Position numbers and translations under genes: made by a program
Part shown: one piece after another, positions 4,039-5,998 of the stretch
Layout: each line of letters begins with the position of its first letter
How positions within the stretch are numbered: the first letter of the stretch is position 1
The notes under the pieces: generated by a model
The model's input: the letters and a program-made list of their open reading frames with translations, nothing else
The model's database searches: none
What the model was told of the DNA's origin: nothing
Assembly: GCF_055900595.2 (NCBI RefSeq)
Contig: NZ_CM148325.1
Reading direction: 5' to 3' (one strand)
DNA length: 64,000 nt

Positions 4039-4359
4039 CTATGCCTCGTCGCTGTCGGTATTGATGATTTTCAGTTCAGCGGACTTCTGGAGCTGGATCA
4101 GCGCCGGGATCAGAAGCGCGGTAGCCGACAGGCCGTGCCCTAACTGGCACAGGCTTTCAGCGGAGAATTCCAGCACGTTGCTGTCGGCAAAGGAGACGAA
4201 GGTTTTACCCAGAAAATGCAGGCCGTGACATAGCCCGGCATAGCACTCTTCGCTGCTGTTGGCCAGTTGCAGAGTATCGTCGGCGTTCAGGTGTGAAATA
4301 TCCAGCTTGCGGATCGCGTCCGCCAGTTCAGAGGACAGAATATTGGTTTCAGGCACCAT
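4039..4359 (-). CDS. Hypothetical protein, 106 aa, acidic C-terminus
   Basis: Strong SD (GGAGGT, 5-nt spacer) before the ATG at 4359. No family recognised by eye. Last of three small genes in the L-X island. Confidence 0.55.
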   Translation of the reverse strand: MVPETNILSSELADAIRKLDISHLNADDTLQLANSSEECYAGLCHGLHFLGKTFVSFADSNVLEFSAESLCQLGHGLSATALLIPALIQLQKSAELKIINTDSDEA

Positions 4360-4525
4360 GGCGCACCTCCAGCGGTTTGCAGGAGACGAACACCAGCGGG
4401 AAACCCGCCAGCAGGCCGCGAGCCTCTGTCTCTGTTGTCGCCAGTACGGATACCAGACGCAGTGGCTGGATCTCGCGCAGCAGGCGGTTGGAACGGGCGT
4501 TCAGGAAGGTGTAGAGCTTAGGCAT
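4352..4525 (-). CDS. Hypothetical small protein, 57 aa (not in ORF track because <60 aa)
   Basis: Hand translation: MPKLYTFLNARSNRLLREIQPLRLVSVLATTETEARGLLAGFPLVFVSCKPLEVRHGA. SD GGAGGT 4 nt before the ATG at 4525. Overlaps both neighbours by 8 nt. Confidence 0.5.
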
Positions 4526-4694
4526 GGTTCACCTCCTCTACCGGGGTGCTACGTGGGGGATTGAACGACTGAGCGATAACGCTCAGTGCCTGCTTACCTT
4601 CGGGATGCGCAAGACGGTAGTAAGTTAACAGGACTTGCTCCTGTGGGCTGAGATCGTCCCACGTGAGAGTTGTGTTACTATTAGCGGTAGCCAT
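4518..4694 (-). CDS. Hypothetical small protein, 58 aa
   Basis: ATG at 4694 preceded by GAGGT (MATANSNTTLTWDDLSPQEQVLLTYYRLAHPEGK...). The track's longer form starts at 4757 without a good SD. Confidence 0.5.
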   Translation of the reverse strand: MATANSNTTLTWDDLSPQEQVLLTYYRLAHPEGKQALSVIAQSFNPPRSTPVEEVNHA

Positions 4695-4836
4695 AGCATT
4701 ACCTCGATTAATGTTGTGGTTAGATGCCTTGGCAGTGTTCGCGCACTGTCGGGGCATTGTTATTTATGTCATGTGATAGTAATGTGTCATCACACAGTAC
4801 TACATTAACCTGAGTGTGATTTAGGTGTCAATACAC
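4695..4836. promoter_or_regulatory. AT-rich divergent promoter/operator region between the two island operons
   Basis: Inverted repeat TGTGAT...ATCACA (tgtcatgtgatagtaatgtgtcatcacacag) and further GTGTGA copies between the start codons at 4694 (-) and 4837 (+). Confidence 0.45.
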
Positions 4837-5004
4837 ATGAATGAAAGAAGAGGAAATCCTCCGTTTCAGTTTCGACTCGATCCTGAACTGAGAAACGCGA
4901 TGGAAGAAGCTAAAAAGCAAGATGGTGATGAATCACTGGCTGCGTGGATTAAGCGAATTATCAGAAAAGAGCTTCAGTCACGGGGTATAGAACCAAAAGA
5001 TTAG
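4837..5004 (+). CDS. Arc/MetJ-type ribbon-helix-helix DNA-binding protein, 55 aa
   Basis: Hand translation: MNERRGNPPFQFRLDPELRNAMEEAKKQDGDESLAAWIKRIIRKELQSRGIEPKD, matching the RHH pattern F-x-L-R-L-x-x-E-L...SLN/A.I..RL. First gene of the + operon. Confidence 0.55.
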   Translation: MNERRGNPPFQFRLDPELRNAMEEAKKQDGDESLAAWIKRIIRKELQSRGIEPKD

Positions 5005-5050
5005 CAGATAGGTATATACTTTGAATAAAGAGTATTAGAGGTAAAAAATA

Positions 5051-5239
5051 ATGGCGAAGAATAGCAGTCCTGCCAGCCGATACGGTATCAAGGTCGTAAA
5101 AAGAGACAGTATGAGCGGGCAGTTTGTACCCGTCGAAATGAAGCTGGACGGCCCGGAAGGTGAGCGTGTGATTAAAAAGTCGGCAGAGCGTATTTATGCC
5201 AGACACAACAAAGTCATTAAGGCGCTGGCTAACCGATGA
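5051..5239 (+). CDS. Putative antitoxin partner of the Doc toxin (family not recognised; not Phd/YefM-like)
   Basis: 62 aa. SD AGAGGT upstream. Stop overlaps the Doc start (ATGA at 5236-5239), a typical toxin-antitoxin coupling. Confidence 0.5.
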   Translation: MAKNSSPASRYGIKVVKRDSMSGQFVPVEMKLDGPEGERVIKKSAERIYARHNKVIKALANR

Positions 5240-5613
5240 TTGATGCACATTTGGTGATTGGAATTCACGACTTTATTCTTGCTCATGAGCCGGGATTGGT
5301 TGGTTATCAGGATGCTGGCCGGGTCGAGGCAACACTGGCACGGGTGGATAACCGTATTCTGTATGAGCAGATGAATGATATTTTCCAGATCGCCGCATCT
5401 TATGCGGTTGCCATCGCCAGAGGGCACGTTTTTGCTGATGCCAACAAGCGAACGGCACTGGTGACGGCGTTGACATACCTTGATATGCAGGGTGTGAACC
5501 TCAAGCGAACACAAAAGCTGGAAGATATTATGGTGGATGTGGCTGAGGGAACGCTAAATCTGGATGATTTAGCCGATATTTTCTATACCCTTAGTGATGT
5601 AAATGCTTCCTGA
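5236..5613 (+). CDS. doc: Doc (death-on-curing) family toxin, Fic fold
   Basis: 125 aa. Conserved Doc motif HVFADANKRTA (HxFx[DN][AG]NKR). Size and layout parallel P1 Doc. Confidence 0.8.
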   Translation: MIDAHLVIGIHDFILAHEPGLVGYQDAGRVEATLARVDNRILYEQMNDIFQIAASYAVAIARGHVFADANKRTALVTALTYLDMQGVNLKRTQKLEDIMVDVAEGTLNLDDLADIFYTLSDVNAS

Positions 5614-5618
5614 CGTTA

Positions 5619-5643
5619 CAGCCCGACAGATCGGGCTGTTTTT
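5619..5643. terminator. Bidirectional hairpin terminator between the convergent Doc gene and the 78-aa gene
   Basis: cagcccga-caga-tcgggctg followed by TTTTT on + strand; A-run on the other side. Confidence 0.6.
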
Positions 5644-5645
5644 AA

Positions 5646-5882
5646 TTATGCCGCCTCAATACCCGCGTTGGTTAACATATAGTGGCCCCAGTGGTTTTTT
5701 TTCAGGTAACCGGCCAGTTCCATCTGCGTCACAATAAATTCAGCGTTAACCATTTCTATACCTGCGTAGTCGGCCAGATCGCGCAGCGGCCATGTGCTGC
5801 GAACGCCGACGCTAACTATGGTGTCTCTGATGCGGCGAGCGGTATCGGTCATTGGGCGGGTTCTGGCTGCCTGAATAGTCAT
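5646..5882 (-). CDS. Hypothetical protein, 78 aa, possible winged-helix DNA-binding protein
   Basis: ATG at 5882 with SD AGGGGA. Sequence ...LRDLADYAGIEMVNAEFIVTQMELAGYLKK... Lies directly after L on the late strand. Confidence 0.45.
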   Translation of the reverse strand: MTIQAARTRPMTDTARRIRDTIVSVGVRSTWPLRDLADYAGIEMVNAEFIVTQMELAGYLKKNHWGHYMLTNAGIEAA

Positions 5883-5998
5883 GGTATTTTCCCCTGTAGA
5901 TTCTTTCTGTTAGGTCAGACACTAACTCTGGTGGGGAAGGGGCATCCAGCGTTCAGATGAGGCGATACGGTGATGCGCATCGCATATCCGTACTCTTT

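Follow-up and report, generated by a model that had tools for sequence, protein, structure and literature searches.

A Doc toxin gene and a probable new minimal antitoxin behind an Arc-like repressor gene in a P2-like prophage

Introduction

Do three genes standing in a row, encoding a small repressor-like protein, a short partner protein and a Doc toxin, make up one evolved three-component system, or has a two-gene pair come to lie behind a regulator that belongs to something else? The question is raised by a 64,000-nucleotide stretch of DNA from NCBI RefSeq assembly GCF_055900595.2, contig NZ_CM148325.1 (the window; positions are counted from its first letter). The list of open reading frames (ORFs) and a terminator scan of the window revealed three ORFs in a row on the + strand, followed by one terminator. 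The small upstream ORF stops at 5004, 46 bp before an ORF of 62 amino acids (aa) at 5051–5239 (the partner), whose TGA stop overlaps by 4 bp, as ATGA, the start of a 125-aa ORF at 5236–5613 (Doc) that carries the motif HVFADANKR. The operon is closed by an intrinsic terminator at 5618–5639 (+ strand; ACAGCCCGACAGATCGGGCTGT followed by TTTTT), with a fold energy of −16.5 kcal/mol. The three ORFs are genuine genes and go beyond chance reading frames. A preliminary description of this locus had taken them to be a dedicated module of regulator, partner and toxin.

Here we found that Doc and its partner are a conserved pair and that the upstream ribbon-helix-helix (RHH) gene is independent of Doc. 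The reading that we hold to be probable is a two-gene Doc pair, whose partner represents a new minimal antitoxin family of the Phd-C kind, inserted in a P2-like prophage downstream of an Arc-like switch repressor gene that is independent of the pair.

The toxin and its partner

By its homology, the 125-aa protein is an intact relative of P1 Doc. It matched TIGR01550 (DOC_P1) at 88.5 bits, with a cutoff of 38.65 (E 3.7e-25), as well as the Pfam Fic family (PF02661, 3.5e-10), the Doc-like toxins of phrog_577 (1.6e-35) and, by phmmer, P1 Doc itself (3k33_A, 1.5e-25). The HVFADANKR motif, on which the preliminary description had based its assignment to Doc, is intact at residues 64–72 (H64...K71 R72) and aligned with HIFNDANKR of P1 Doc. 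An AlphaFold2 (AF2) model superposed on P1 Doc (3dd7_A/3k33_A) with TM scores of 0.89–0.91 and a root mean square deviation of 1.5 Å over 119 columns. Threshold, motif and modelled fold together confirmed the assignment. Doc phosphorylates EF-Tu and so arrests translation (PMC10440598), and the Doc of the window should act in the same way if homology to P1 Doc is a guide. Among four enterobacterial copies, the codon differences in doc were 28–33 synonymous and 3–5 non-synonymous, and those in the partner gene 12–14 and 5–6, showing that both genes are under purifying selection. The toxin also matched a candidate-defence model of PADLOC, PDC-M59B (3.6e-8).

What, then, is the partner? Its gene is preceded by a Shine-Dalgarno sequence (GAGG, 5038–5041), and the protein gave zero matches in Pfam, NCBIfam, PADLOC and the PDB sequences; the sole library match was to phrog_11529 (2e-5), which has no assigned function in PHROG. 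When 80 members of the partner family were compared with Pfam, none matched any family. The hhalign probability against P1 Phd was 0.07, searches of the PDB with the partner and with its family profile did not retrieve Phd chains, and neither Pfam nor NCBIfam gave a match to the swapped-hairpin domain of AbrB/MazE (SpoVT). The early impression that the 62-aa protein does not look like Phd/YefM was thus borne out by profile searches, which also excluded AbrB. Fic inhibitors of the YhfG/VbhA type carry an inhibitory motif, (S/T)xxxE(G/N). Judged by eye, the partner lacks this motif: the window reads L-D-G-P-E-G, with no S/T, and the family consensus L-S-G-x-E-G (S-x-x-E-G) has a spacing one residue shorter than that of YhfG/VbhA. 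Taken together, hhalign and the searches of Pfam, NCBIfam, PADLOC and the PDB, the last with both sequence and profile, ruled out membership in Phd/YefM (PF02604), AbrB or a YhfG/VbhA-like family.

The partner was found to belong to a family of its own. An exhaustive phmmer search of 1.84 billion cluster representatives with the partner returned 8 clusters only, and a profile built from these retrieved 161 proteins, in at least 160 clusters at 90% identity. The family is mostly betaproteobacterial (Herbaspirillum, Massilia, Polaromonas, Bordetella, Comamonas, Burkholderiaceae, Vogesella, Chitinimonas) and also occurs on plasmids of Robbsia, Janthinobacterium and Polaromonas. Its members typically have about 52–62 aa and share a core, PVxMxLSGxEGxRVVxxAAKRVIxTHxxVIKALA(K/N)R, at the extreme C-terminus, which in the protein of the window finishes with the family motif H-x-x-V-I-K-A-L-A-N-R. 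Across the family, the N-terminal region differs in both length and sequence; in the window it is rich in K and R, has an alternating beta-like pattern and includes the basic segment YGIKVVKR.... Members are annotated 'hypothetical' throughout or are uncalled in RefSeq. On plasmid p2 of Robbsia andropogonis (L042, 1201–1347) the partner is missing from the gene table, and the match there is labelled as the neighbouring Doc. Being unlisted in this record and 'hypothetical' in others, the family is readily missed in annotation. We thus describe an unannotated and fairly widespread antitoxin-like family for Doc toxins that has no Pfam or NCBIfam model, and a model of it would let many 'orphan' Doc genes be recognised as complete pairs.

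An unusual member was seen in L005 (P0005, 1651–2028), a 125-aa protein in which the partner domain lies C-terminal to an extension of about 70 aa without a family match. The gene after it overlaps by 4 bp, and the contig ends inside that gene. This protein may be a natural fusion of a neutralising element to another domain.

Occurrence of the pair across genomes

The association of the two genes was examined in 26 partner loci that were read to their ends, and Doc lay directly 3′ of the partner in 25 of them, intact in 20 and decayed in 5. Intact loci usually show the 4-bp overlap between partner and Doc. The overlap of the 62-aa stop codon with the Doc start, which had been likened to that of toxin–antitoxin pairs, was confirmed in the window and is backed by pairing across loci. 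In the reverse direction, a partner homologue stood upstream of all three Doc relatives from viral contigs. A profile scan of genome contigs with a tighter partner alignment yielded 9 loci. As a small gene coupled to the toxin gene, upstream of it and paired with it across genomes, the partner gene has the layout of the antitoxin gene in a type II pair. In the five loci with a decayed Doc (L012, L014, L015, L016 and L017, in Caballeronia, Burkholderia and Bordetella), the toxin gene carries a frameshift or internal deletion beside an intact partner, the decay to be expected where the loss of a toxin spares its antitoxin. The one remaining locus of the 26 (L009, 2944–4120; …ARRVIRRHRAVIKALAKR), on a viral contig, has a divergent member of the partner family, and the next gene there encodes not Doc but a repeat-containing protein of 334 aa.

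To what extent can the partner be likened to known Doc inhibitors? An AF2 model of the partner alone, made with 80 sequences, left residues 1–33 without secondary structure (predicted local distance difference test, pLDDT, 55–71) and formed helices at 35–51 and 53–60, a helix-kink-helix with pLDDT 87–96, at a predicted TM score (pTM) of 0.41. The model contained no folded N-terminal DNA-binding domain of the Phd/YefM type, and a fold search with it returned noise only. We then modelled Doc joined to the partner by a (GGGGS)6 linker, using 12 paired rows and 73 partner-only rows. In this fusion model Doc had a pLDDT of about 90, residues 26–62 of the partner had 89–95 and again formed the helix-kink-helix, and the pTM was 0.77. 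With Doc making up 125 of 217 residues and the linker disordered, this pTM is higher than could come from Doc by itself and was taken to mean that the C-terminal part of the partner is placed confidently on Doc. From these scores we infer that this part docks on the toxin.

Comparison with phd-doc of P1 revealed several shared features. The toxins are homologous, at about 41–45% identity, with HxFx(D/N)(A/G)NKR in common and a modelled fold at TM 0.91; the antitoxin gene lies upstream of the toxin gene and overlaps it; and both pairs are carried by temperate phages. According to the prediction, the C-terminus of the partner forms a kinked helix comparable to residues 52–73 of Phd, and both proteins end in K-x-L-x-N-R (KELVNR in Phd, KALANR in the partner), a likeness noted by eye that serves as a lead only. 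The partner differs from Phd in having no Phd/YefM N-terminal domain, in being 62 aa long and half disordered, and in the extra repressor gene upstream. A counterpart in architecture is the Phd-C of PanA, a two-helix tail that contacts the active site of Doc, neutralises it once stabilised, and can be joined to various domains (Ernits et al. 2023, PMC10440598). Both have a two-helix C-terminal element proposed to touch the active site of Doc and to be sufficient for neutralisation, and both suit the notion of a linear neutralising element that is separable from DNA-binding or accessory domains; in PanA it is fused to a Panacea domain, whereas in the partner nothing but a disordered basic segment stands before it. 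Antitoxins that consist solely of a neutralising element are known (PMC10440598). If this is confirmed for the partner, it would be among the smallest natural inhibitors of Doc and a clean natural neutralising element without a DNA-binding domain, a case of interest for the question of how interchangeable modules are combined into antitoxins.

A control site of its own seems to accompany the pair. Ahead of the partner gene, the 46-bp spacer contains an imperfect palindrome, ATACTTT-GAAT-AAAGAGTAT (5016–5035), a candidate operator or part of an own promoter of the pair, and a possible promoter was picked out by eye (−35 TTAGCA at 5001–5006, −10 AATAAA at 5024–5029). Perfect 8-bp arms, ATACTCTT/AAGAGTAT, are present in L006 (2967–2986) and L010. 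Upstream of the partner gene in the Robbsia locus (L019, 2434–2452) we found ATATACTCA-N-TGAGTATAT between TTGAAA and TACGAT; in Herbaspirillum TGGTACACA-N-TGTGTACCA comes right after TTGACA; and L022 and L021 have other palindromes at the equivalent position. The half-site ATACTC/GAGTAT is common to the enterobacterial and Robbsia palindromes despite their unrelated upstream regulators, which are RHH and helix-turn-helix (HTH) proteins, respectively. Since the enterobacterial palindrome stays constant when the RHH type changes, the RHH protein is unlikely to be its binder. Candidate binders are the basic N-terminus of the partner, the partner–Doc complex, or the HTH protein in an ancestor of the Robbsia type.

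The upstream repressor gene

We wanted to know whether the upstream gene is a third component of the pair. The ORF had been described as a 55-aa Arc/RHH protein encoded 46 bp before the partner gene. The distance and a probable Arc-like nature stand, but its length was probably underestimated: the GTG at 4825 gives a protein of 59 aa, the standard length in the family, and makes the ATG at 4837 the fifth codon, and an alignment of upstream regions showed a conserved start, GTG-TCA-AC.... The gene thus probably occupies 4825–5004 on the + strand. Judged by homology it encodes an Arc-like RHH repressor, an assignment that we make with moderate confidence, and its RefSeq family name is YlcI/YnfO. 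The protein matched phrog_228 (Arc-like, 5.2e-6) and, below the cutoff of that model, NF041551 (YlcI/YnfO, 1e-4); hhalign placed it in the register of Arc (PQFNLRWPRE) and Mnt, with an E value near 1e-3 and a probability of 17–22%. Pfam Arc was matched by 1 of 32 family members (2.2e-4), the protein of the window itself had no match in Pfam, and a profile of the RHH alignment had none in the PDB. Among the 147 homologues found, the second helix (helix B, AAWIKRIIRKELQSRG) is invariant, while the presumed DNA-reading beta-strand comes in at least two versions, PPFQFRLDPELR and KQIALRVEPxLE.

The distribution of this gene separates it from Doc. About 198 complete E. coli genomes contain the RHH gene with its upstream region, and the family extends to many other Enterobacterales. 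The closest relatives, from Serratia and Enterobacter (83–88% identity), and the E. coli examples that were read stand alone in islands with integrase, AlpA and primase or helicase genes. There the RHH gene is divergent from an operon that starts with an Icd-like gene, a layout also found in a Pasteurella phage. RHH genes without Doc were seen in L002, L027, L028, L029 and L031–L038. We ruled out the RHH protein as the actual antitoxin, because hundreds of genomes carry it without Doc. In E. coli L725, similarity to the window stops directly after the RHH stop codon. The pair was seen behind the other type of RHH strand, with a different operator region, in GMF054, in an IMG/VR contig and in Edwardsiella ictaluri; the partner and Doc genes of GMF054 are 98–99% identical to those of the window while the N-terminal half of the RHH protein and the operator differ. 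None of the non-enterobacterial partner–Doc loci that were read has this RHH gene. The regulator is thus not a constant partner of the pair, and the dedicated three-part module of the preliminary description was not supported: the RHH gene occurs mostly without Doc, most pairs occur without the RHH gene, and two RHH types precede one and the same pair.

Compared with the YlcI/YnfO-type RHH genes of islands, the gene in the window shares the 83–88% identity, the operator repeats, the divergent Icd-like operon and a conserved hairpin element; it differs in what follows, since the island genes have no co-oriented downstream gene, whereas the window and a few P2-like prophages have cargo there.

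Other regulator-type genes do occur in the same place. Of about 10 partner–Doc lineages, 4 have a small gene of DNA-binding type directly upstream on the same strand, namely the Arc-like RHH gene in the enterobacterial loci, a 66-aa HTH gene in Robbsia-type loci (phrog_4779, 3e-6), a related 70-aa HTH gene in Herbaspirillum, and a 71-aa gene in L008 whose match to Pfam RHH_1 is weak (0.011). Such a gene is missing from the other lineages (L013, L021, L025/L026 and L043). When viral contigs were searched, no relative of either betaproteobacterial HTH gene was found, and the HTH domain also forms the N-terminus of proteins of about 427 aa in L012–L015.

Mechanism and alternative explanations

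How might the locus work? On the two-gene reading, Doc, a kinase of the Fic fold, would phosphorylate EF-Tu and stop translation, and the 62-aa partner would be an antitoxin made of the neutralising element alone, its helix-kink-helix lying on Doc and blocking it in the manner of the C-terminal tail of Phd. The pair would have been inserted directly after the RHH stop codon. The RHH gene would belong to a separate and wider unit, a face-to-face or divergent promoter switch that also drives the leftward Icd-like operon, and transcription from its promoter would probably read into partner and Doc; the shared strand, the 46-bp gap and the single terminator at 5618–5639 give a layout that permits co-transcription of all three genes. 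A weak promoter and operator that belong to the pair itself may additionally be retained in the spacer. The outcome would be a three-gene operon that arose by juxtaposition and not as an evolved tripartite system, in which co-regulation may nevertheless persist. Its likely role would be prophage addiction or stabilisation, abortive defence, or both.

Several observations weigh against this account. The four lineages of about ten with a regulator-type gene upstream, although L008 is a weak case, exceed what chance juxtaposition leads one to expect, and some protein must bind the palindromes that are conserved ahead of partner genes. The docking of the partner was read solely from pLDDT and pTM, and its helices were also predicted confidently when it was modelled alone; the basic N-terminal segment (YGIKVVKR...) could form a dimeric DNA-binding ribbon that a monomer model does not reveal. 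Finally, a consensus promoter scan of 4400–5950 gave no sigma-70 site at the thresholds used, so that all promoter proposals made here are by eye and tentative.

Some of these points would suit a split antitoxin, in which the partner neutralises and a separately encoded, exchangeable DNA-binding protein regulates, an Arc-like RHH protein here and HTH or RHH proteins, the latter possibly CopG-like, elsewhere. This weaker form of the three-part idea is possible, and we would give it a minor share of the probability. The partner has no recognisable DNA-binding domain and its N-terminus is predicted to be disordered, and a co-oriented regulator-type gene lies upstream in four independent configurations. 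There are also precedents: omega-epsilon-zeta of pSM19035 and paaR2-paaA2-parE2 of an E. coli O157:H7 prophage likewise consist of a regulator, an antitoxin without a DNA-binding domain and a toxin, and PaaA2, which is prophage-borne, is a largely disordered antitoxin of about 63 aa. Omega, an RHH repressor as well, regulates other plasmid genes besides epsilon-zeta (PMC4803016), which makes a regulator with further targets on its mobile element compatible with such a system. Their toxins (zeta kinase, ParE) are unrelated to Doc, however, and in those systems the regulator is constant, unlike in the window, where RHH gene and pair mostly live apart and the RHH type changes while the pair stays. 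The tripartite explanation is further weakened by the many pairs that have no such gene, by the overwhelming occurrence of the RHH gene without Doc, by the two RHH specificities that precede one identical pair, and by a spacer palindrome that is constant across RHH types and resembles that of an HTH-bearing locus. If a split antitoxin were true, the Doc family would gain its first described tripartite architecture, a natural snapshot of modular antitoxin assembly or disassembly, and in a P2-like prophage hotspot the system could serve addiction or defence.

The palindromes raise another explanation, that the partner is a complete classical antitoxin whose basic N-terminus dimerises and recognises the palindrome ahead of the partner gene, with the RHH gene irrelevant to the pair. 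In several lineages, stand-alone pairs among them, the palindromes lie in or beside promoter-like hexamers upstream of the partner gene; the enterobacterial and Robbsia loci, which have the half-site ATACTC in common, also encode partners that are each other's closest relatives (58% identity), and the K/R-rich, alternating beta-like N-terminus would fit a DNA-binding ribbon. Yet that segment is variable and predicted to be disordered (pLDDT 55–71), its roughly 25 residues are very short for a DNA-binding domain, and L013 combines a Robbsia-like N-terminus with a Herbaspirillum-like palindrome, so that partner and palindrome types do not track each other cleanly; we regard this explanation as improbable. 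It is more improbable by far that the partner is an adaptor, a chaperone or a second effector, with Doc controlled in some other way or inactive. The partner does lack homology to any known antitoxin, and the member in L009 precedes a protein other than Doc. Against this, the partner is small, its gene precedes that of Doc with a 4-bp overlap, and the two strictly co-occur, all of which suits an antitoxin; the partner is also kept where Doc has decayed, and the Doc motif is intact in a gene under purifying selection.

Regulatory region and RNA element

The preliminary description had also placed an operator-like inverted-repeat region ahead of the RHH gene. Such repeats exist, at 4778–4836, which we regard as a candidate operator/promoter region of the RHH switch on the basis of repeats in the window and an alignment with satellite-like islands. 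A degenerate palindrome, AGTAATG-TGT-CATCACA, lies at 4778–4794, followed by half-site-like repeats at 4803–4809 and 4815–4820, and the island alignment gave the consensus TGTAATG-TGT-CATTACA with repeated half-sites. The operator repeats are kept in loci with the same type of RHH strand and replaced where the N-terminal half of the protein differs; in GMF054 and L725 beta-strand and operator region switch jointly. Candidate promoter elements picked by eye are a rightward −10 (TAATGT, 4780–4785, + strand) and, on the minus strand, a leftward −35 (TTGACA, 4831–4826) and −10 (TAATGT, 4807–4802).

The strongest inverted repeat of 4695–4836, in contrast, is no part of this operator. It lies at 4723–4758, forms a terminator-like hairpin, and belongs to a covarying two-hairpin RNA element at 4689–4761 (+ strand), which covers the start codon and Shine-Dalgarno sequence of the leftward operon. 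Over eight loci, 96.9% of cells in this element were paired, with 6 pairs showing compensatory change, compared with 37–48% in slid controls; invariant G-U pairs suit the + strand only, and a T-run follows. A comparison with Rfam gave a weak match to SymR (29 bits, E 0.0064), below gathering. The element, which is no component of the toxin–antitoxin pair, is a candidate cis-antisense RNA for the Icd-like operon, common to satellite-like islands of E. coli, Serratia and Enterobacter.

The divergent leftward operon (4039–4694, − strand) goes with the RHH gene and not with Doc. It begins with a 58-aa ORF (4518–4694), continues with an Icd-like ORF, also of 58 aa (4349–4525; NF033153, 1.7e-5), and ends with a 106-aa ORF (4039–4359), all on the − strand; its ORFs also match phrog_20855 and phrog_19484. 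The divergent arrangement of RHH and Icd-like genes recurs in L027, L028 and L031–L038. The window has about 140–170 extra bases here relative to GMF054 (L001, 6349–6555) and L725 (L002, 5350–5556), and these account for the separate 58-aa ORF (MATANSNTTLTWDDLSPQEQ...) ahead of the Icd-like ORF. In GMF054 and L725, one 68-aa protein combines the MATANSN start, which the 58-aa ORF also has, with the Icd-like part. The unit at 4039–4836 is typical of integrase/AlpA/primase islands and is found here inside a P2-like prophage, as if the phage had captured the switch region of a satellite.

Prophage setting and cargo

The three-gene module is surrounded by the late genes of a P2-like prophage and lies on the strand opposite to them. 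On one flank are capsid gene N, terminase gene M and head-completion gene L (to 5999), and on the other tail gene X, two holins and an endolysin (from 3924), gene names being taken from annotated E. coli relatives. The GC content is 40–50% over about 4700–5700 and 55–64% in the flanks, a drop that fits acquired cargo; partner and Doc form a two-gene, low-GC cargo at a spot of variable content that is flanked by phage genes L and X. This spot is distinct from the gpA–gpQ hotspot analysed by Rousset et al. (PMC9122126).

Among 5,426 complete E. coli genomes the module is entire in only one, GMF054, and a protein identical to that of the upstream ORF was found in 19 E. coli contigs, every one in the context of the window. 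Searches of a phage collection found neither DNA nearly identical to the window nor the partner protein. In E. coli L725 (L002, 5689–7207), the L–X spot of a related P2-like prophage carries different cargo, which indicates that the spot behaves as a variable cargo locus. There an RHH homologue is followed by a 177-aa protein without a family match and, further along on the other strand, by a RelE/ParE toxin with an HTH partner. These loci illustrate a route of phage cargo swapping, by which a Doc pair, a membrane protein or a RelE/ParE pair is placed under one switch promoter, and it is plausible that the invariant 3′ half of the RHH gene serves as the recombination anchor for such swaps.

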